The notes beneath the pieces are model-generated. The model saw only the letters and a list, made by a program, of their open reading frames with translations, made no database searches and was not told the DNA's origin. DNA of 64,000 nt from Anaerolineae bacterium (GTDB lineage: Bacteria; Chloroflexota; Anaerolineae; SpSt-600). Below, one piece after another: positions 2,368 to 64,000 of the stretch (position 1 is the first letter of the stretch; every line of letters starts with the position of its first letter). The stretch covers positions 31,976 through 95,975 of the forward strand of contig JBHOQL010000107.1 in the NCBI GenBank assembly GCA_042408195.1, given 5' to 3'. The position numbers and the translations under genes are program-made.

Positions 2368-2733
2368 ATGGAAGAATTGATCCTCGAGAACTTGGAAGAG
2401 GGTAAACTTCCCTGCGAGAGAGCTTTTGCCATAGCCCGAAAGCTCAGGGTAAAACCTTTAGCAGTAGGGCAAAAAGCGGATGAAATGGGCATAAAGATAA
2501 GCCGGTGCCAGCTTGGCTTGTTCGGTTACGCGGGTAAAAAGCTTATCGCTCCCATGGCCGAAATCCCTCCCAAGCTAGAAGAAGAGATAAAACGCCGGAG
2601 TAAAGAAGGAAGATTGACATGCGCGGGGGCGTGGGCTATAGCGCGTAAGCTCAACCGGAGCAAGCTTGAAGTTTCAAGCGCTGCCGAAACTCTTGATATC
2701 CACATAATTCAATGCCAACTCGGATGCTTCTAA
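2368..2733 (+). CDS. small protein built from two homologous ~45-aa repeats, each carrying two Cys (C-ERAFAIARKL…KISRCQLGLF and C-AGAWAIARKL…IIQCQLGCF)
   Basis: The internal duplication is evident from the translated ORF. Four to five conserved Cys suggest metal or cluster binding. It is tightly packed between the TP-rich gene and the MoaD-like gene. Confidence 0.45.
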   Translation: MEELILENLEEGKLPCERAFAIARKLRVKPLAVGQKADEMGIKISRCQLGLFGYAGKKLIAPMAEIPPKLEEEIKRRSKEGRLTCAGAWAIARKLNRSKLEVSSAAETLDIHIIQCQLGCF

Positions 2734-2744
2734 AGGAGGTACTT

Positions 2745-3140
2745 ATGCGAGTGGAAGTTTGGCTCTATGGTCCTATAGCGAAATATGGAGGAGGCGAACA
2801 CTACGCCAAAGTGGAATTGGACTTGCCCGAGGGTGCCACTCTGAAAGAAGCGCTGGAAAAACTTGGCATCCCGCTGGAAGAGCGAGGTATAACGTTTATA
2901 AACAGCCAGCTTTCAGCCATGCCAGGCTTTTACCCCGATATGGATGTGCAACTTAAGGAAGGGGACAGAGTCGGAATATTTCATCACAAAAGCATGTGGC
3001 CTTTCCAGTATCGCTTTGGAGCCAAAATGCACCCAGCTTTTGAAGAGGGCTTAAAGAAAGGGGAAGTCGGCTATCTGCGCCATTCCTACCGCCAAATCGA
3101 ACAAACCAATCCTGAAACCAGTAAGGATGAGCAAACTTGA
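2745..3140 (+). CDS. MoaD/ThiS-like beta-grasp sulfur-carrier-like protein lacking the C-terminal Gly-Gly, with a ~50-aa C-terminal extension
   Basis: A perfect RBS aaaggaggt lies 4 nt upstream of ATG 2745, making the 2712 start less likely. MRVEVWLYGPIAKYGGGEHYAKVELDLPEGATLKEALEKL…LKEGDRVGIF matches the MoaD/ThiS pattern (LPEGATv…L…GDeVaIipPvsGG), but it ends …VGIFHHKSMW… with no GG. Confidence 0.5.
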   Translation: MRVEVWLYGPIAKYGGGEHYAKVELDLPEGATLKEALEKLGIPLEERGITFINSQLSAMPGFYPDMDVQLKEGDRVGIFHHKSMWPFQYRFGAKMHPAFEEGLKKGEVGYLRHSYRQIEQTNPETSKDEQT

Positions 3141-3659
3141 GGGTACATAGGATCGAGTCCAATGCTGGGGGAGTGAAGATATCTCCCCCAAAGAGATAAG
3201 AGGAGGGGGTTAAAGGACAAATTCCTGCCATTGCCCGCGGGCGGGACTCTAAACCACAGCGAGCTCGAGGCCTACGGGGGTTAGAAAGATTAAGGCACCG
3301 ATGGGCGCAAACCCTTTGCCAGGGGTTTTCTTAAGAGAGTCCAAGCTGTTGACTTCAGCCATCTGCTTACGAGAGGAGCCCTCCGAGGCAACCCCAAAGC
3401 TAATGGAGGCAGACAAAATCGGGGGAGCAAGGGACAAAGCCCTTGCGGGGGAACTTAAGATGTCTCCTCAAGAAGGCAAAAGAGGGGGTATAGATCCTGG
3501 CTGTCACCTACGATGGGGATCAGTAACCGAAGCGGACCCGAAGCCAATGAGGATAGGCAGAATCTAACGAGGGTGGGTCCTCAGCCTGTCAAAGCCGTGG
3601 ACAGGATGTGAACCCCACTGAAGTAGGCAGAATCGAACACAGGCAGACGAAAGAGAAAA
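3141..3659 (+). promoter_or_regulatory. 520-nt GC-rich, highly structured non-coding leader between the MoaD-like gene and moaA; candidate Moco/Wco riboswitch region
   Basis: No convincing ORF; the listed ORFs at 3249-3437 (-), 3301-3567 (+) and 3589-3777 (-) are short, overlap each other and have no RBS. Contents: many perfect hairpins (e.g. GCAAGGG-ACAAAG-CCCUUGC at ~3425-3445, CCUGUC…GACAGG at ~3586-3608); an imperfect direct repeat, AGGCAGAAUCUAAC at 3556-3569 and AGGCAGAAUCGAAC at 3625-3638 (13/14); and a CUCCGAGGC element reminiscent of Moco RNA motifs. Its position immediately 5' of moaA (ATG 3660) is where Moco riboswitches occur. Confidence 0.3.
3215..3284. repeat. copy 1 of a conserved two-block structured motif (GGrCAAAyTCCTGCCmTTGCCCGCG..GGGAC + variable hairpin + ACGGG(GG)TTAG)
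   Basis: Block A runs 3215-3247 and block B 3274-3284. They are separated by the short palindromic hairpin GCGAGCUCGAGGC. A second copy sits at 60508-60574. Confidence 0.4.
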
Positions 3660-4643
3660 ATGGGTTGCATTGATGCCTACAATCGCTCGATAAGTTACCT
3701 CCGAATATCAGTAACAGACCGGTGCAATCTCCGCTGTATCTACTGCATGCCGAGGCAGGGTGTCCCCTTGAAACCACATCATGAACTCCTCACCTTTGAA
3801 GAAATCGCCAGAATCGTGAAAATTTCCTCCTCTCTGGGTATAACCAAAATCCGCTTGACCGGAGGAGAGCCTCTCGCCCGCCGGGGCATCGTTGAATTGG
3901 TAAGGATGATAGCCTCGATTCCGGGGATTGAGGATCTGGCCATGACCACCAACGGGACTTTGCTACCCCCTCTTGCCCACCAGCTAAAGGAGGCGGGCCT
4001 CCAGAGAGTGAACATAAGCCTTGACACCCTCAAACCTGAGCGCTTTCACCGGATAACAGGGGGAGGAAACCTGGAGGATGTCCTCAGGGGAATAGAAGAA
4101 GCCAGAAAGGCTGGCTTAACCCCCGTTAAAATAAACGTCGTGGTCCTTGACGGGTTCAACCGAGACGAGGTGGTGGACTTTGCCCGTCTCACCTTGCACG
4201 ACGAATGGCACATCCGCTTCATTGAAGTAATGCCATTAGGGCTTGAGGCAGAAAACAACCTGGGGAAATATGTCTCCATGCAGGAGGTTCGGGAAGACAT
4301 TGAAAAGGCTCTCGGGGAGTTGATACCCGCAAATCTGAAAGGCAACGGGCCTGCTCGTTACTTCCGATTAAAAGAAGCTAAAGGCACCATAGGATTCATA
4401 ACCCCTGTGAGCGAGCACTTCTGTTACGAGTGCAACCGTTTACGCCTCACCTCTGACGGCAAGCTGAGGCCTTGCCTTCTATCGGACTTTGAGGTAGACA
4501 TTAAAACAGCCCTGCGTTCCGGGGCTACCGATGAGGAATTGAAGGAGATCCTTAGAGGAGCTGTTCGCCTTAAACCTGAACGCCATCAACTGGAGGCTTC
4601 TTCCTTCCCTACCGGAAGGGCAATGGCAGAAATCGGTGGATAG
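3660..4643 (+). CDS. moaA: GTP 3',8-cyclase MoaA (radical SAM, molybdenum/tungsten cofactor biosynthesis)
   Basis: The N-terminal radical-SAM motif LRISVTDRCNLRCIYCMP and overall MoaA layout (GGEPL, second C-terminal Cys cluster CYECNRLRLTSDGKLRPCL) are present; length is 327 aa. Confidence 0.9.
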   Translation: MGCIDAYNRSISYLRISVTDRCNLRCIYCMPRQGVPLKPHHELLTFEEIARIVKISSSLGITKIRLTGGEPLARRGIVELVRMIASIPGIEDLAMTTNGTLLPPLAHQLKEAGLQRVNISLDTLKPERFHRITGGGNLEDVLRGIEEARKAGLTPVKINVVVLDGFNRDEVVDFARLTLHDEWHIRFIEVMPLGLEAENNLGKYVSMQEVREDIEKALGELIPANLKGNGPARYFRLKEAKGTIGFITPVSEHFCYECNRLRLTSDGKLRPCLLSDFEVDIKTALRSGATDEELKEILRGAVRLKPERHQLEASSFPTGRAMAEIGG

Positions 4644-35343: not shown

Positions 35344-35795
35344 TTCTTGGCCTCCTTTCGCAACGGATTAGGGCCGAGGCTCCTTATCTTTTCCGTCATC
35401 TCGGCCACTACTTCGGCAAAGCGAGCTCCTTCAGCTGAAGACATATAATAAATGTTTAAGCGCTCTCCGTCAAGACCTATTTCCTCTAAAAGTTTCTTAG
35501 CGTACTGAACTCTTTTCGTGGCCTTTACATTCCCATCCTTAAAATGACAGTCTCCTATCCTGCACCCAGCGACTATCACTCCATCGGCCCCCTTTTCAAA
35601 GGCCGTAAGGATGTGGTGGACGTCAATCCTGCCGGTGCAGGGGATCTTCACAATTCGGATAGAGTCAGGATACTGTAGACGCATCACCCCTGCCAGGTCG
35701 GCAGCTCCATAAGCGCAGTAATGGCAAGCAAAAGTCACGATAATCGGCTTAAAGTCCTGCATAGTCTCTGCCTCCATATCACACCCATGCCGCAA
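35340..35795 (-). CDS. mvhD: MvhD/FlpD-like hydrogenase delta-subunit-type [2Fe-2S] electron-transfer protein
   Basis: MvhD signature (IVTFACHYCAYGAADLAG… IRIVKIPCTGRIDVHHILTAFEKGADGVIVAGCRIGDCHF). Confidence 0.8.
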   Translation of the reverse strand: MRHGCDMEAETMQDFKPIIVTFACHYCAYGAADLAGVMRLQYPDSIRIVKIPCTGRIDVHHILTAFEKGADGVIVAGCRIGDCHFKDGNVKATKRVQYAKKLLEEIGLDGERLNIYYMSSAEGARFAEVVAEMTEKIRSLGPNPLRKEAKK

Positions 35796-40239: not shown

Positions 40240-40674
40240 TTATCTTTTATTACCTTCAGGCTTAAAGCCGTTCTTGATGGGATTGGGCCCTAATTTCTTA
40301 AGCCTTTCCACCATGGTGTTCACAGCGTTGGCGAAGGTTCCTCCCTGTCCACCGGACATGTAAAAGATTTCCAAGCGTTCTCCTCCAAGCCCGATTTCAT
40401 TCAGAAGTTTTTTAGCAAATTGAACTCGCCTTGCGGCCTGGATATTGCCGTGGACGTGATGGCAATTGCCGATAGGGCAAGCTACCACTATCACTCCATC
40501 GGCTCCCTTTTCAAAGGCTTCGAGGATGTAACGGACATCCAACTTTCCAGTGCAGGGGAAACGTATTAATTTTGTATTAGGGTGGTATTGAATGCGTAAA
40601 GCTCCCGCTGTATCCGCAGCCATATATCCACAGTATATACAGGTGAAAAGAGTAATTTCAGGCTGAAACTCCAT
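40240..40674 (-). CDS. mvhD: MvhD/FlpD-like protein, second copy
   Basis: MEFQPEITLFTCIYCGYMAADTAG…FPCTGKLDVRYILEAFEKGADGVIVVACPIGNCHH is a paralogue of the 35340-35795 gene. Confidence 0.8.
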   Translation of the reverse strand: MEFQPEITLFTCIYCGYMAADTAGALRIQYHPNTKLIRFPCTGKLDVRYILEAFEKGADGVIVVACPIGNCHHVHGNIQAARRVQFAKKLLNEIGLGGERLEIFYMSGGQGGTFANAVNTMVERLKKLGPNPIKNGFKPEGNKR

Positions 40675-57763: not shown

Positions 57764-58874
57764 CTTCTCCCCTCTCTTTTGCGATCTTCCGGAGACGGAC
57801 TTTCCCTATTCGCCTTCCCACTAAAGATAGGACTTCAAAATCGAAGCCTTCTAGTTGAAAATGGGCGCCTCTTTCAGGTATCTTTCCAAATTTACTATAC
57901 ACCAAGCCTCCCACAGTGTCAATACCTTCCAGATCCAGTTCTTTTCCTATTATCTCTTCCAGATCCTCGAGGCTGAGCCTACCATCCAGAATGTATTCTC
58001 CTTCCCCGCTCTCTCGCAGGAGGGGTTCTTCTCGGTCATATTCGTCTTGGATCTCTCCCAGGATTTCCTCTAACAGGTCCTCCAGGGTGATTATCCCAGC
58101 CGTGCCTCCGTATTCGTCCACCACTATGGCCATGTGGATCCTCTGGCGCTGCATCTCCTTCAGAAGTTCGGCAGCGTTCTTGGTTTCAGGGACAAAATAC
58201 GGGGGACGGAGAATGCTCTTCACTTCTTCAGTCCACTTTCCTTCCCACGCTTTCTGGAGAAGGTCCTTCACGTGGATTATCCCGACTATGTTATCTATAG
58301 TCTCTTCGTAGGCAGGAAGACGGGAATGCCCGCTTTCGTTGGCAATTTTCACAGCTTCTGAAACAGTGGCCTCCGCCTTGACGGCCACCAGATCTATCCT
58401 TGGCACCATTATCTCCCGCACGATGGTTTCCTCAAGGTCCAGAGCCCCTTCCACGATCTTGCGCCTCTCCCCTTCCAGCACGCATATAATTTCGCCGGAT
58501 TTTTCATCACTAAAGGAAATCTCGCGAGCCTTTTTGTAGAAAAAGGCAAACGGAGCGAAGAGCAGAGCGACAAACTCAGCAAACCCCTCAAGGAAATTAA
58601 TGCGGCTGCCCACCTTTTCACCGAGACCATGGAGCAGCATAGCGGAAAAACTGTTAATTGCAAGCATTAAAAGAACAGTTAATCCCAAAGGGAAAAAGGG
58701 TTCCAGGAGCTTGAACAAGCTTGCCCCAGCCATCAGGAGGGAAGCACCGGCCAGAAAGTCAAAAGAATATTGTCTTTTTTCCTCGGGTTTATGTCTTTTC
58801 AACCACAGGTTCTTTAAGGCAAAACTTGCCCAGAAACCAACCAGACTTGCAAGCCAGAGCCCCGCATAAATCAT
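57723..58874 (-). CDS. corC: CNNM/CorC-HlyC-family transporter (DUF21 TM domain + CBS pair + CorC_HlyC domain)
   Basis: N-terminal 4-TM DUF21, CBS pair (IMVPRIDLVAV… / IVGIIHVKDLL), and a C-terminal transporter-associated domain. Confidence 0.8.
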   Translation of the reverse strand: MIYAGLWLASLVGFWASFALKNLWLKRHKPEEKRQYSFDFLAGASLLMAGASLFKLLEPFFPLGLTVLLMLAINSFSAMLLHGLGEKVGSRINFLEGFAEFVALLFAPFAFFYKKAREISFSDEKSGEIICVLEGERRKIVEGALDLEETIVREIMVPRIDLVAVKAEATVSEAVKIANESGHSRLPAYEETIDNIVGIIHVKDLLQKAWEGKWTEEVKSILRPPYFVPETKNAAELLKEMQRQRIHMAIVVDEYGGTAGIITLEDLLEEILGEIQDEYDREEPLLRESGEGEYILDGRLSLEDLEEIIGKELDLEGIDTVGGLVYSKFGKIPERGAHFQLEGFDFEVLSLVGRRIGKVRLRKIAKERGEDEGGKSKAMEQEG

Positions 58875-60208
58875 TTTTTCTCCTTAGCTGGGACCCCATA
58901 AACTAATGCTCCGGGAGGGACATCTCTCGTAACTACCGAGCCAGCTCCAGTCCTGGCTTTCTTACCCACTTTGACCGGTGCCACCAACATGGTATCGCTT
59001 CCAATGAAGGCCTCATCCTCTATGATAGTCGGATGCTTTGTGTAACCATCAAAATTGCAAGTTATGGTTCCTGCTCCTATGTTTACTTTGGCTCCCACCG
59101 TGGCATCACCCAGGTAACTGAAGTGATTTACCTTGGTACCGGGGCCCAGGTAACTTTTCTTGATTTCGGCAAAGTTTCCGATGTGGACTCCACGGGCGAG
59201 GTGGGTTCCAGGCCGGAGGTGGGAGAAAGGGCCAACTCTGACTTCTTCCTCTAATACGGCTCCTTCAACCACCGAAGCCTCTATAATGCAGGCATTCCCT
59301 ATTTTGGAATCCCTGATGATAGTTCCAGGCCCTATCACACACCCTTCCCCGATCTGTGTTTTGCCTAGAACGAAAGAGTTGGGGTAGATAACCGTGTCCA
59401 TGCCTATCTCTACTCCCGCTTCCACATAAGTGGCTTCGGGGTTCACAATAGTAACCCCGTTTTCCATCCAGTAACGGTTTATCCTTTGGCGCATGATGGC
59501 CTCAGCCATAGCCAGGTGGACTCTAGTGTTCACTCCAAGGGCTTCTTCAGGGTCCTTAAGGGCGACCGTATGCACAGGGGAATTTTCCTCAATGGCGATA
59601 GCGACAAGGTCCGTCAGGTAATATTCACCATTGGGGTGAGGTTTGAGCAAGGGCAGGTGAACTTTCAGCCACTCAGTCTGGAAGCAATAAACCCCTACGT
59701 TAAGTTCCGTCAAAGTTTTCTCCTGGGGAGTAGCTTCTGCTTCCTCTACTATCTTTACCACATTACCATTCTCATCCCGGACCACTCTTCCAAAGCCCAT
59801 GGATTCGGAAGAATGGACGGTTAAGAAAGTCACCGGTGGCTTCCTCTCAAAGTGAGCCTTGATCAATTCTTCTACGGTCTCTTTCCTCAACAAGGGCATA
59901 TCGCCATAGAGGACAAGGGTCGTTTGAGGCCAGGAAGGCACAGCTTCCAGAGCTTTGAGGACAGCGTGGCCTGTGCCCAGAAGCTCCCCCTGGTGGACCG
60001 TTATGGCTCTTTCACCTATTAATTTGGCTACTTCTTCTCCCCCGTAGCCTATCACGACCACAGGCTTGTAAGCAGTTAAGGCAATGGCTGTTTCCAAAAC
60101 GTATTCCAGCAGGGGCTTGCCGCAGAGGGGATGTAAGACTTTCGGGAGCTTTGATTTCATTCTCTTGCCGAGCCCTGCAGCTAAAATTACGACTTTAAGT
60201 TCTTCCAT
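58871..60208 (-). CDS. glmU: bifunctional UDP-GlcNAc pyrophosphorylase / GlcN-1-P N-acetyltransferase
   Basis: N-terminal nucleotidyltransferase (VVILAAGLGKRMKS…) and C-terminal left-handed beta-helix hexapeptide repeats; 445 aa. Confidence 0.9.
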   Translation of the reverse strand: MEELKVVILAAGLGKRMKSKLPKVLHPLCGKPLLEYVLETAIALTAYKPVVVIGYGGEEVAKLIGERAITVHQGELLGTGHAVLKALEAVPSWPQTTLVLYGDMPLLRKETVEELIKAHFERKPPVTFLTVHSSESMGFGRVVRDENGNVVKIVEEAEATPQEKTLTELNVGVYCFQTEWLKVHLPLLKPHPNGEYYLTDLVAIAIEENSPVHTVALKDPEEALGVNTRVHLAMAEAIMRQRINRYWMENGVTIVNPEATYVEAGVEIGMDTVIYPNSFVLGKTQIGEGCVIGPGTIIRDSKIGNACIIEASVVEGAVLEEEVRVGPFSHLRPGTHLARGVHIGNFAEIKKSYLGPGTKVNHFSYLGDATVGAKVNIGAGTITCNFDGYTKHPTIIEDEAFIGSDTMLVAPVKVGKKARTGAGSVVTRDVPPGALVYGVPAKEKK

Positions 60209-60507
60209 CCCTTACTCCCGGGGTAAAATTTACAATTCTTTACCGATAATTTTAGCACAGCGCCCTACACCGGGGCAAGCTTCAAAAGGGTGAACACTCA
60301 GAGGTACACGAGGAAAATTTGGTTAAGGCAAGTTGCTGTCTTCTATAGCTCGCCCATAGGTGGTGGAAACGTAGAGGGCGTCTCTTCACCCGCAAGCGGG
60401 ATCCTCAAGGCGGTAAACTAAAGACCCGAGAGGCAAGCAAAGCTGAGGGCTAGGAAGGCCTTTTCCTCCTTGGGGGTATCCCCGCAGGAAGAAAGAATGA
60501 GGGCACA

Positions 60508-60574
60508 GGGCAAACTCCTGCCCTTGCCCGCGAAGGGGACCGGAGCTGGAATGGCTCCAGGGTCAACGGGTTAG
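60508..60574. repeat. copy 2 of the conserved two-block structured motif (block A 60508-60540; hairpin GGAGC-UGGAAUG-GCUCC; block B 60566-60574)
   Basis: Block A matches copy 1 at 29 of 33 positions, including GGRCAAAYUCCUGCC, UUGCCCGCG and GGGAC. Block B (ACGGGUUAG) also matches. The intervening hairpin differs in sequence from copy 1 but is still a hairpin. It lies in the 368-nt ridA-glmU spacer. Confidence 0.4.
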
Positions 60575-60576
60575 GG

Positions 60577-60957
60577 TTAATTTTGCAGTAGTGCTATAGC
60601 GTCTATTTCTACCAGAGCTCCCCTTGGGAGAGCCGCCACCTGCACAGTGGTCCTGGCCGGAGGAGATTGGGGGAAAAATTCAGCATAAACAGCGTTCATG
60701 GCCTGAAAATCATTGAGGTCCTGGAGGAAAACCCCTACTCTTACAACATCATCCAAAGAGGCCCCTGCTGCCTCCAGGATAGCCTTGAGATTCAACAGAG
60801 CCTGTCTGGTCTGAGCTTCAATCCCTTCCTCAAGTTGTCCGGTAGCAGGATTGATGCCAATCTGCCCAGCTACGAAAAGGAAATTCCCAGCTTTTACTGC
60901 CTGAGAGTAAGGCCCTATGGCTGGAGGAGCCTTTTCAGTGCTTATCACTTCCCTCAT
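60577..60957 (-). CDS. ridA: RidA/YjgF-family reactive-intermediate deaminase
   Basis: [42 protein letters not shown]… is the canonical RidA N-terminus. Confidence 0.85.
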
Positions 60958-61644: not shown

Positions 61645-61716
61645 TTTCGCTTCCCCCTCCCAGCTTTCAGGGAAGCCTTAAAAACAAAGCCCCTTTGGGG
61701 GGCTCTGTTTTTAAGG

Positions 61717-61788
61717 TGGGCGAGGAGGGTTTCGAACCCCCGACCTCGCGGATGTGAGCCGCGCGCTCTACCGCTGAGCTACTCGCCC
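61717..61788 (-). tRNA. tRNA-Val (anticodon CAC)
   Basis: The reverse complement folds as a cloverleaf: acceptor GGGCGAG/CUCGCCC, D-arm GCUC-AGCGGUAGA-GAGC, anticodon stem CGCGG/CCGCG with loop CUCACAU (anticodon CAC), T-arm GGGGG-UUCGAAA-CCCUC, discriminator A; CC is encoded after it. Confidence 0.85.
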
Positions 61789-62231
61789 CTTTTGATTTTA
61801 TTATATGGCAAATTCAGGGACTTGTCAAAATTTGTGAAAGCTTGCCTTCGAAAAACAGGCCCCGCTCACAAAGCTTGGCCCAATTTAACAATCTCAAGCC
61901 AGACCAGGGACCGGCTTTCGCTGGCCTTTTGAAGAAGTAACGGGATGTGCTTCAGAAAAGACGAAACAGGTAGTTAATTGCTATCCATGCAATTTGTCCG
62001 CGAACACAGCCATGAGCCAAGCAAATCCAAACCTGGAGGGGTAAGTAGAAAGGGCATAGAGCAATTTCCTGCATCTGCCTACAAGTGGGACCTACAGCCG
62101 AAACAAACCCGGAGCTCACAAGGGGAAGCGAACGCAGGATGAGTTTTCAGAATTGCCAATTTGAGGAGGCGCTGGAAGCTTCCAAGCACAGATCCAAAAC
62201 CGGCGGTATGTTAACTGTACCTCCAGAAAAA

Positions 62232-62259
62232 TTGCAAACCCCTGAGCACGGAGTATAAT
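62232..62259 (+). promoter_or_regulatory. sigma70-type promoter (TTGCAA-16 nt-TATAAT) for the downstream YfhO-family gene
   Basis: -35 TTGCAA at 62232-62237 and -10 TATAAT at 62254-62259 with a 16-nt spacer. Followed by the leader hairpin CUUGAG-agaacucccuggagg-CUCAAG that encloses the SD. Confidence 0.5.
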
Positions 62260-62288: not shown

Positions 62289-64000
62289 TTGAGCAAGAAA
62301 GCGAACCTATTGGCCTTCCTTTTCCTCCTCTGCACAGTGCTGCTCTTAGCCCACCGTATCCTTTTCACCAACCGCATTTTGGTTGGCCTTGACCTTTTCA
62401 CTTATTTTTACCCCTATTGGCACCTTGCAACTGAAGCCTTGAAAAGAGGCCAAATCCCTTTGTGGAACCCCTACCTCTTCATGGGCAGTCCGCTTCTGGC
62501 TAACATCCAGCTCTCCTTTTTCTACGGGATCAACTGGCCTCTTATAGTCTGGTTTTCCCCTCCGCAAGCTGTAAAGTTTTCCATAGTCCTCCACCTCTTC
62601 TTGGCGGGTCTTTCTACCTGGCTTCTAGCCAGGAAGAAACTCGGACTTTCCCCGGCCGCCTCTCTGCTTTCAGCCACGGGATTCTCTGCAGGGGGATTCC
62701 TTGTGGCCCAGGCTGAGCATGTAAACCAACTGGCGGTGATTACTTGGCTGCCCCTTTTCATTTTCTTAGTAAACTACAGCCCTTTAGCTGCAGCTTTTAT
62801 CTTCTGTCTTATGGTTTTCGCTGGTCACCTGCAAGCTTTGTACATAAGCCTTGCCGCCGCAAGCCTTTATCTCCTCTTCTCCAGTTTTTCTGATAGAGGT
62901 AGAAGCCTACTTAAACTGCTTATCGCCTGTGGGGCCGGACTTGGTCTATCAGCTATCCAGCTCATCCCTACACTGGAACTGGCAGGCCTCTCCATCCGCA
63001 GTCAGGGTCTATCGTTTCAGGATGCAACCGCTTTTTCCCTGAGGCCTTTTCTCCTTGCCTATTCTCTGCTGCCTCCCATAGGCATAAAGCTTGAAGTCTT
63101 TTTCGGAAGCAGAGCCTTCACCGAATATGTAGCCTACGAGGGGGTTATATGCTTGCTTCTGGCCATCGCTGGCCTGATTTCTCCTGAGAAGAAAAAGTGG
63201 CCTTGGGCGGCGATGGTCTTAGTGGGTTTGTTTCTGGCTTTCGGGCGAGCCAATCCCTTCTACCGTTTCCTGTATGAATTTGTCCCGGGTTTTTCTTCCT
63301 TCCGGGCTCCTGCACGTTGGATGTTGCTCTACGCTCTGGGGCTACCGGTGCTTGCGGGAATAGGCCTGGATCACCTGCGCTTTCTTTCTCTGAAGATTTA
63401 CTTACCATTGCTGGGGGCGGCATCCATCATCCTTGTCCCCTCTTTTATCGTTTCACCGCCGCCTCTCACGACATTAATGGCCTGGCTGGTCGCAGGCTTA
63501 CTGGGGTTAATTTTAATCCTCGGGGTGCGGATGAAAGGCTTTCCCACCTGGCCCGCTGCCTTTATTCTGATCGCTGAATTGATCCTGGCTTCAGGCAGCA
63601 TGCCCCTAAGTAACCCAACTGCTCCTCAGGCTTTCTCCAGCTGGCGGACCGCCCCTCTTCACCTAGCCCTCGTCCAAGAAAAGGGGGAAATCTTCCGCTT
63701 TCTCTCCTTTTCCTCCCTTGTCTTCGACCCGGGCGATCTTGGGGAAATGCGCTCCGCTTACCTTGAACCGTTGGGGGAGGAAGCTTTTTACGATTTAGTC
63801 GTCGCTGTAAAGCAGAAGGAAGTATTAGCTCCTAACCTCCCCGCTCTTTACGGCTTCCATACCGTTGACGGCTATGACGGAGGGCTATTACCCCTGAGAG
63901 ATTTCGTGAAAGTAACGGGGCCCATGCATTATGCCGGCCGGAAGGCCATGGACGGTAGGCTCTATCAGTTCATCCATGCGCCGCCCCCTGATCCATTGCT
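62289..64000 (+). CDS. YfhO-family polytopic membrane protein (GT-C-like glycosyltransferase), 3'-truncated at window end; absent from the supplied ORF track because it has no stop inside the window
   Basis: Open frame from TTG 62289 (RBS ggagg 6 nt upstream) to the window end. The translation …LDLFTYFYPYWHLATEALKRGQIPLWNPYLFMGSPLLANIQLSFFYG… is the YfhO family signature, followed by many hydrophobic helices. Confidence 0.7.
   Translation, partial: MSKKANLLAFLFLLCTVLLLAHRILFTNRILVGLDLFTYFYPYWHLATEALKRGQIPLWNPYLFMGSPLLANIQLSFFYGINWPLIVWFSPPQAVKFSIVLHLFLAGLSTWLLARKKLGLSPAASLLSATGFSAGGFLVAQAEHVNQLAVITWLPLFIFLVNYSPLAAAFIFCLMVFAGHLQALYISLAAASLYLLFSSFSDRGRSLLKLLIACGAGLGLSAIQLIPTLELAGLSIRSQGLSFQDATAFSLRPFLLAYSLLPPIGIKLEVFFGSRAFTEYVAYEGVICLLLAIAGLISPEKKKWPWAAMVLVGLFLAFGRANPFYRFLYEFVPGFSSFRAPARWMLLYALGLPVLAGIGLDHLRFLSLKIYLPLLGAASIILVPSFIVSPPPLTTLMAWLVAGLLGLILILGVRMKGFPTWPAAFILIAELILASGSMPLSNPTAPQAFSSWRTAPLHLALVQEKGEIFRFLSFSSLVFDPGDLGEMRSAYLEPLGEEAFYDLVVAVKQKEVLAPNLPALYGFHTVDGYDGGLLPLRDFVKVTGPMHYAGRKAMDGRLYQFIHAPPPDPL

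Follow-up and report, generated by a model that had tools for sequence, protein, structure and literature searches.

The sequence analysed here, hereafter the window, is a stretch of 64,000 nucleotides (nt) of contig JBHOQL010000107.1 (assembly GCA_042408195.1, positions 31,976 to 95,975) from an uncultured Anaerolineae bacterium (Chloroflexota), whose named relatives are metagenome-assembled genomes (MAGs) designated "Anaerolineae bacterium". Our subject is a two-block sequence motif found in two of its intergenic spacers. The first spacer, of 519 nt (3141-3659), leads from a gene for a MoaD/ThiS-like protein (2712-3140, + strand) to moaA (3660-4643, +), and the second, of 368 nt (60209-60576), separates glmU (58871-60208, - strand) from ridA (60577-60957, -). 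An earlier note, made from the sequence alone, had described block A (3215-3247 and 60508-60540) and block B (3274-3284 and 60566-60574) in these spacers. Both blocks lie where it placed them. By our count block A is identical at 27 of 33 positions rather than at 29, and the block B copies, ACGGGGGTTAG and ACGGGTTAG, do match, with a 2-nt indel.

Degenerate repeat units in the window

The best local alignment between the two copies pairs 3186-3247 with 60480-60540 (44/62 identities, 71%, E 2e-6 by blastn in a search space of 601 x 441 nt). An 18-mer core pattern with at most 3 mismatches has only two sites in the window, for a chance expectation of 0.31 per window. Taken on its own, the pair is only borderline beyond chance, because 5 of 100 shuffled windows had at least two matches to that pattern. 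Strong support comes from an independent source: both copies match a profile hidden Markov model (HMM) built from 116 repeat units, all of them from other genomes.

In those genomes, the repeat unit is about 150 nt long (143-153 nt) and consists of modules B, C and A, in that order. Module B comprises two hairpins made of G-runs and C-runs, called H1 and H2. Module C reads ..GGGGCGAG..GCAACC..CCACGAG and module A reads GGGAC..GGC.AACCC..AGC..ACG.GGGTGGG.AAA, with CCACGAGTGGGAC and ACGAGGGTGGG as sequence motifs of the C/A part. Searches with nhmmer and the 116-unit HMM, complemented by synteny comparisons, yielded the following features in the window, all on the + strand.

3089-3658, +: extra DNA in the interval between the MoaD/ThiS-like gene and moaA relative to four related genomes (blastn synteny; L001 5966|6000 corresponds to window 3088|3659, and L002 5950|5997 to 3092|3656)
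3159-3288, +: degenerate unit 1 (31.7 bits, E 3.9e-9, HMM positions 28-156)
3304-3419, +: degenerate unit 2, lacking the H2 region (18.6 bits, E 4.1e-5 window-wide, HMM positions 18-158)
3418-3577, +: degenerate unit 3 (match at 3418-3560, 28.9 bits, E 2.8e-8, HMM positions 3-155)
3578-3650, +: probable further decayed partial unit, up to the ribosome-binding region of moaA (read from the sequence; not significant by HMM)
60428-60576, +: copy 2, about 1.3 degenerate units (match at 60469-60541, 10.3 bits, E 0.014 window-wide, which is marginal, and 1.7e-4 in the spacer alone)
62050-62124, +: copy 3, a partial unit with modules C and A, unlisted in the earlier note (16.1 bits, E 2.4e-4 window-wide and 2.7e-6 in the spacer, HMM positions 73-148)

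The motif is thus not simply present twice, as had been proposed: the moaA spacer harbours at least three consecutive degenerate units in register, and there is a third locus. All three loci are intergenic. In unit 1, block A spans the end of module C and the start of module A, and block B (the end of module A) follows after a spacer at 3248-3273. The GAGGCAAC..AAAGCU block (3386-3407) corresponds to the spacer plus the block-B region of unit 2. Shorter blocks had also been reported as shared but rearranged between the two spacers. Since the GAGGCAA..AAAGCU block is the module-A region of a neighbouring unit, its different order simply reflects the phase of the tandem array. As for the shared GGGGGUAU blocks, their positions are not homologous; that of copy 2 is an H2 hairpin, and that of copy 1 aligns to the start of module C.

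Unit 3 harbours an H1-type hairpin, GCAAGGG(3427-3433)-ACAAAG-CCCTTGC(3440-3446), with GGGGG on either side, and a canonical block-B copy, CTAACGAGGGTGGG (3564-3577), which matches the end of an array of the closest relative (L103, see below) at 14 of 14 positions. It also contains the sole window match to a covariance model of H1 and H2 (3421-3473, 20.7 bits, E 0.009), which is weak compared with those in relatives. Further downstream, segment 3578-3650 contains the hairpin CCTGTC-AAAGCCGTG-GACAGG and an H2-like stretch, GGATGTGAACCCCAC. Short direct repeats are also found just upstream of moaA, TAGGCAGAATC(T/G)AAC at 3554-3568 and 3624-3638 and AGGCAGAC(A/G)AAA at 3407-3418 and 3641-3652, and they are probably remnants of further decayed units. 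By eye, the moaA spacer looks repeat-derived up to the ribosome-binding region of moaA.

Copy 2 starts with a module-A remnant, GAGGCAAGCAAAGCUGAGGGCUAGG (60430-60454), and an H1-like hairpin, AGGAA(60452-60456)/TTCCT(60463-60467), followed by the H2-like GGGGGTATCCCC (60472-60483), block A, a spacer hairpin (60541-60565) and block B. Copy 3, in which one stretch, GAGCAATTTCCTGCATCTGCCTACAAGTGGGAC, resembles block A and another, CACAAGGGG, resembles block B, lies in a spacer of ~500 nt that separates a tRNA-Val(CAC) gene (61715-61788, -) from a gene for a membrane protein (+ strand, start near 62289). With 10-32 bits, the window copies score far below full-length units of relatives (roughly 100-160 bits). 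They have lost most of module B, and, as read from the sequence, the other window units keep short substitute hairpins only.

A repeat family of related Anaerolineae

The complete unit became apparent upstream of glmU in related genomes. In locus L009, the glmU spacer consists of 5.1 tandem copies of a 150-nt unit, and the same spacer of locus L008, with an identical GlmU protein, has 2.4 copies. The moaA spacer of the window aligns weakly to these tandem units. A smaller HMM, made from seven units, detected matches in the window and extra dispersed copies in loci L002, L006, L008, L009 and L010. The further copies for which the earlier note had recommended to search are abundant, with 315 HMM matches in 550 kb of related loci. 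In relatives, the covariance model yielded 264 matches in 407 kb, at 29-85 bits (50-85 bits for canonical units).

We also scanned one genome per species, for 185,579 species, with a strict two-block pattern for which about 11 chance matches were estimated. It yielded 83 stretches. Among the 80 listed, 38 belong to H70_729, 26 to RSWS10, 4 to CAZZMI01 and 1 to H87_871, and 11 come from unrelated taxa; the latter do not match the HMM, and their number equals the chance estimate. Thus, a small clade of uncultured Anaerolineae carries a lineage-specific interspersed repeat family. Its high copy number and dispersal in sister genomes, its presence or absence at orthologous sites and its variation in copy number at one locus are all directly observed.

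The repeats are almost exclusively intergenic and form direct tandems of 1-6 units and head-to-head inverted pairs. In H70_729, many arrays consist of head-to-head pairs of full units, or have an extra terminal B module. The 111 arrays that we collected range from 53 to 897 nt; each of the two orientations is represented by 44 of them, and the remaining 23 are mixed. A flanking gene is missing on at least one side of 69 arrays, mostly because of a contig end. Flanking-gene orientations were scored from crude calls of open reading frames (ORFs). The purine-rich strand is in the sense of both flanking genes in 16 arrays and in antisense in 3 (about 13:3 after removal of same-locus duplicates, p about 0.01), and annotated cases are in line with this bias; 9 arrays are found between divergent genes and 6 between convergent genes. 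The bias could result from selection against a C-rich, pyrimidine-rich transcript in operons, for example because of Rho loading; alternatively, a strand-specific insertion mechanism could be behind it.

The moaA locus illustrates the presence or absence of the repeat at orthologous sites. In four relatives, the gene order is MutL-like, three small ORFs, MoaD-like, moaA and XdhC, and only 17-47 nt separate the MoaD-like gene from moaA (24 nt in L001, 47 in L002, 36 in L003/L004 and 17 in L104), versus 519 nt in the window. The MoaA proteins of these relatives are 83% (L001), 84% (L002), 71% (L003/L004) and 86% (L104) identical to that of the window. The closest relative is H70_729 (GCA_034432815.1; L103 2-428), with 88% identity for MoaA and 87% for GlmU. 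It harbours a canonical array directly upstream of moaA, in the same orientation, with units of 113 and 130 bits; the array ends 6 nt before the ATG, and the contig begins inside it. The terminal GGGTGGGGAG of this array is a Shine-Dalgarno-like sequence at the right distance from moaA. Either the moaA array was inserted in the common ancestor and has decayed in the window lineage while H70_729 renewed it, or this site is prone to repeated insertion (a hotspot).

The MoaD/ThiS-like protein of the window has a 17-residue C-terminal tail, RQIEQTNPETSKDEQT (3089-3140), which L001 and L002 lack. Because the tail lies inside the lineage-specific extra DNA, it seems that the stop codon of this gene was displaced by the insertion or by its decay. 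No promoter-like site was found by a promoter scan between 2600 and 3900, and the array is therefore predicted to be part of the transcript of the MoaD-like-moaA operon, probably with its purine-rich strand as the sense strand. A single terminator-like site was found in that interval, on the minus strand and within chance expectation. Further upstream, a small protein that is predicted to be membrane-anchored and has a long low-complexity tract of Thr-Pro (TPTPTP) is encoded at 1929-2360, and its position is conserved in relatives.

Upstream of glmU, long spacers are found in relatives as well, and the upstream neighbour is a different one each time: an aminotransferase, ThrRS or RuvX in relatives, RidA in the window. 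This region (window 60209-60290; L005, L006, L008, L009) is a recurrent gene-order break, filled with repeats in some genomes. In five relatives, only about 100 nt adjoining the glmU start codon are conserved, and blastn synteny stops at 60260 (L005) and 60280 (L006). The inner limit of the conserved sequence is a feature detected by the promoter scan.

60249-60278, - strand: promoter-like site of glmU, TTGCCC-18-TGnTAAAAT

Copy 2 lies in antisense between the ridA stop codon and this site, and is outside the glmU transcript as predicted from it. Nothing corresponding to copy 2 is present in the glmU spacers of H70_729 (L006) or JANXAG01. In H70_729, the 538-nt spacer between thrS (-) and glmU (+) (L006 4462-5001) contains no repeat unit; it is GC-rich with several hairpins, and a thrS leader might be located in it.

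Copy 3 is flanked by divergent promoter-like sites, one at 61828-61800 (-) for the tRNA gene and one at 62232-62259 (+) for the membrane-protein gene. The former matches the promoter consensus perfectly (TTGACA-17-TATAAT). The 5'-terminal 11 nt of tRNA-Val (GGGCGAGTAGC) are identical to part of the module C consensus, an identity estimated to be at chance level. No promoters or terminators are predicted within copies 2 or 3. The window copies are thus found in three different contexts, which argues against one dedicated function. Elsewhere in the window, a 101-nt direct repeat with 73% identity (35544-35644 and 40459-40559, 4.9 kb apart) probably represents paralogous coding segments.

Conserved features of the repeat unit

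We realigned the 116 units in their natural phase, as arrays tend to start at one recurrent position; recurrent array ends are found at HMM positions of about 45-47, 75 and 100-110. The H70_729 consensus over the C/A junction is GGCAACTCCTGCAACCCGGCCACGAGGGGGAC CCTGAACCCCGGCGAACCCTCAGCA AACGAGGGTGGGG (or, in shortened form, GGCAACTCCTGCAACCCGGCCACGAGGGGGAC...ACGAGGGTGGG). In an alignment of the window motif to this consensus, the first stretch corresponds to block A (GGGCAAACTCCTGCCCTTGCCCGCGAAGGGGAC), the second to the hairpin described as variable and the third to block B. Identity is otherwise only about 70% between the H70_729 and RSWS10 subfamilies, and about 78-79% among the members of each. 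Blocks A and B coincide with stretches in which the two subfamilies have one consensus, with at least 80% conservation in either. Judged from these alignments, no other sequence stretches of the modular ~150-nt repeat unit are as well conserved as these two.

Conservation of a different kind is found in module B. H1 follows the pattern T-NN-A-GGGGG-C-NNN-G-CCCCC-T-N'N'-C, in which the two basal pairs are CC/GG, GG/CC or GC/GC; about 77 units are consistent with it, and about 5 are not. RNAalifold predicted hardly any structure from a MAFFT alignment of the 116 units, since the register is shifted by indels around the hairpins, and a hand-defined structure and covariance model were therefore used for H1 and H2. 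In the alignment of 150 covariance-model matches, the basal pairs of H1 are GC:79/CG:57 and CG:86/GC:52, with <7% unpaired. Overall, 94.9% of cells are paired, versus 87.0% in shuffled controls, and none of 500 shuffles reached the observed value. These counts reflect a few subfamily haplotypes, not many independent events, and pairing is kept in every haplotype. The triloop is free (GAA, AAA, GGA, GCA, TTT, TTC and others). The purine-rich strand is composed of 37% G, 24% A, 28% C and 11% T. On that strand, G:T is more frequent than A:C, 31 to 15, a comparison that is biased since the covariance model favours G:U.

The region between blocks A and B behaves differently. The earlier note had described a hairpin in both copies; copy 2 does have a clean local hairpin there, but copy 1 does not. 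Nor did the covariation-like signature of a structured RNA that it proposed for this spacer become evident across the family alignments. When the aligned junctions of 136 units were inspected, with no formal count, no compensatory changes were seen between blocks A and B. The motif of 67-70 nt folds no better than its shuffles (z +0.60 for copy 1, -1.13 for copy 2 and +0.84 for copy 3), and its predicted folds differ among copies. When the whole spacers were folded, z was -0.4 and -0.9 on their + strands; the minus strand of the glmU spacer gave -2.35, and none of these values is convincing.

Several other origins of the repeats were considered and discarded. A coding repeat is contradicted by unit lengths of 143-153 nt that are not multiples of 3, and ORFs through the arrays are artefacts. 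ARAGORN found no tRNA-like fold in the arrays, contrary to what would be expected of an origin from a tRNA or a short interspersed element (SINE). A scan of viral contigs for a phage origin yielded 3 matches, all attributable to chance. Rfam searches with both window spacers and a canonical array, at gathering score and with E up to 10, returned chance matches only (MIMT1 and PK-BYV among them).

Nature of the repeat family and possible roles

We consider it likely, with a probability of somewhat less than 0.8, that the blocks in the window belong to decayed copies of an interspersed repeat that is specific to this lineage and analogous to BOX, BIME and MIRU elements. The "miniature repeat", one of the options offered by the earlier note, would then be the right one, and that note was correct in rejecting a simple 5'-UTR (untranslated region) riboswitch. 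In this scenario, a non-coding repeat unit would have spread to fresh intergenic sites through a presumed trans-acting activity, and arrays would grow or shrink by unequal recombination or slippage among units. The H1 hairpin and the motifs of modules C and A may be kept because they are needed for propagation, or because they are tolerated or useful once co-transcribed. The hairpin and the asymmetric motifs would be what the mobilising activity or a host factor recognises. In the window lineage, the family looks inactive, and its copies would be decaying relics whose effects on moaA or glmU, if any, would be incidental.

In behaviour, the Anaerolineae repeat appears closest to BOX elements. 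In Streptococcus pneumoniae, these are organized as boxA-(boxB)n-boxC; they are regarded as parasitic and are able to affect co-transcribed genes (PMC3049150). Both families are small, non-coding, modular interspersed repeats that are intergenic, vary in the number of tandem modules per locus, show length polymorphism among strains, have extensive predicted stem-loops and are restricted to a narrow clade. Features of this type in the Anaerolineae family include the recurrent boundaries of partial units, the extra terminal B modules and the 5.1 versus 2.4 units at one locus. The likeness is one of behaviour only: no sequence relation was seen, with no formal comparison made. In addition, repetition here involves the whole B-C-A unit of ~150 nt and not a single internal module, the sequence is rich in GC and has G5-6/C5-6 runs, the host belongs to another phylum, and neither terminal inverted repeats nor target duplications were detected.

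REP and BIME elements, which are found in Enterobacteria and Pseudomonas and associated with RAYT proteins, are similarly high-copy, extragenic sequences that form hairpins with compensatory changes and mosaics of direct and inverted units, often between co-transcribed genes. REP units are imperfect palindromes of 20-40 nt with a conserved GTAG/CTAC. The present units, in contrast, are ~150 nt long, with two hairpins and long non-palindromic conserved motifs; GTAG is not conserved, being present in some module C variants only (GAGTAGCC, as opposed to GAGTTGCC or GAGAAGGC), and no RAYT-like gene was seen in the flanks of the arrays. MIRU-VNTR loci of Mycobacterium tuberculosis are also tandem intergenic repeats, often in operons, whose number varies among strains, as in the glmU arrays described above, and the moaA array likewise lies between co-directional genes without a promoter-like site. 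MIRUs are 46-101 bp long and occupy about 40 loci, and some contain short ORFs for translational coupling. The Anaerolineae family has many more loci, inverted pairs and a unit length that is not a multiple of 3. Miniature inverted-repeat transposable elements (MITEs) are also short, non-coding and multi-copy, with insertion polymorphism among relatives; here, however, we found neither terminal inverted repeats nor a target-site duplication or a parent insertion sequence, and tandem arrays are the rule. Finally, the upstream region of moaA is the classic position of the molybdenum cofactor (Moco) riboswitch. The likeness to this riboswitch (RF01055) is limited to that position: no match was found in 3100-3700 at E up to 10, or in the window at gathering score, and the element is not conserved at moaA in relatives and is repeated at unrelated loci. 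The Anaerolineae repeat thus lacks the defining features of REP elements, MITEs and the Moco riboswitch. The family itself is undescribed as far as the literature was searched, in which no description of interspersed repeats in Anaerolineae or Chloroflexi was found, and it is of a known kind, that of bacterial interspersed repeats.

Several observations weigh against the reading as a decayed interspersed repeat. Among 870 ORFs in array flanks of up to 4 kb, there is no recurrent protein, the large clusters being translations of the repeats, and no transposase was found in these flanks. Mobility is inferred from presence/absence and dispersal only, because neither terminal inverted repeats nor target-site duplications were found around the window arrays; filled and empty sites have diverged (71-79% identity), and their junctions cannot be defined exactly. 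The covariation and free triloop of H1 are signs of a constraint that a purely junk sequence would not need, and the excess of G:T over A:C and the sense bias go in the same direction. Finally, two derived states, CCTGCCnTTGCCCGCG and GGGTTAG in place of GGGTGGG, are common to copies 1 and 2, which hints at a window-specific subfamily instead of independent decay. A metagenome scan for this subfamily with CCTGCCNTTGCCCGCGNNNGGGAC gave 6 matches, all of them GC-rich chance matches not detected by the HMM.

In a rival explanation, the arrays would be functional, co-transcribed structured RNA modules whose hairpins act at the RNA level, such as 3'-end or intercistronic stabilisers, processing sites, terminators or insulators, or Rho-resistant spacers, of which the window copies would be weak or lapsed versions. 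Beyond the compensatory pairs and free triloop of H1, the excess of G:T over A:C and the transcription-sense bias, it would fit with arrays that commonly begin 0-40 nt past the upstream stop codon and with the C-rich reverse transcript, expected to be a good Rho-loading substrate; BOX-type repeats are also thought to act on co-transcribed genes through structure (PMC3049150). We nevertheless regard it as unlikely. Arrays are also located between divergent or convergent genes and in antisense, head-to-head pairs place both strands in any transcript, copy number varies freely at one locus, and in four relatives the moaA site has no array. Little of H1 and H2 is left in the window copies, the best of them scoring 20.7 bits with the covariance model against 50-85 bits for canonical units, and no U-tract terminators are predicted in or beside them. 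About as doubtful is a broader proposal, according to which the repeat is a selectively maintained, purine-rich and orientation-dependent RNA or single-stranded DNA module of thermophile-type Anaerolineae, whose H1 and blocks A and B would be read by a dedicated putative protein, either a new mobilising enzyme or a host factor using the arrays as intercistronic spacers or terminators.

Alternatively, the arrays might be binding sites for a sequence-specific DNA-binding protein, nucleoid-associated or architectural, or a recombinase, with CCACGAG.GGGAC and ACG.GGGTGGG as sites. The best-conserved non-hairpin columns do form asymmetric motifs common to subfamilies that are only ~70% identical, and blocks A and B are exactly those motifs, but no candidate protein was identified in the array flanks, and an orientation bias relative to transcription is unexpected for a pure DNA site. 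We find this very improbable as a full explanation. It is compatible with a repeat element, since the binding protein could be the mobilising enzyme.

Lastly, a family of trans-acting small RNAs (sRNAs), as suggested in the earlier note, or a cis-acting leader or riboswitch, for instance of the Moco type, controlling moaA, would fit with the location of copy 1 and the sequence shared by copies 1 and 2, but it is hardly tenable, being already contradicted by the Rfam results (RF01055 included), by the short moaA spacers of the four relatives with the same gene order, by the lack of promoter-like sites in the moaA spacer region or coinciding with copies 2 and 3, and by folding like that of shuffled sequences, and, in addition, the units are tandem and mosaic without spacer-specific parts, and copies 2 and 3 adjoin unrelated genes.

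If the blocks are decayed interspersed repeats, the long moaA and glmU spacers should be annotated without a riboswitch or sRNA, which removes a false lead. The repeat accounts for spacers of 370-520 nt, compared with 17-47 nt before moaA in four relatives, and it coincides with gene-order breaks at these sites. The arrays may also explain the fragmentation of sister MAGs, whose contigs often end in them. The HMM and covariance model can be used for masking and annotation, and the arrays as copy-number markers that vary among strains. With this family, the Chloroflexota gain a populous repeat that numbers hundreds of copies in two or more diverged subfamilies and shows a covarying hairpin as well as a bias in transcription sense.

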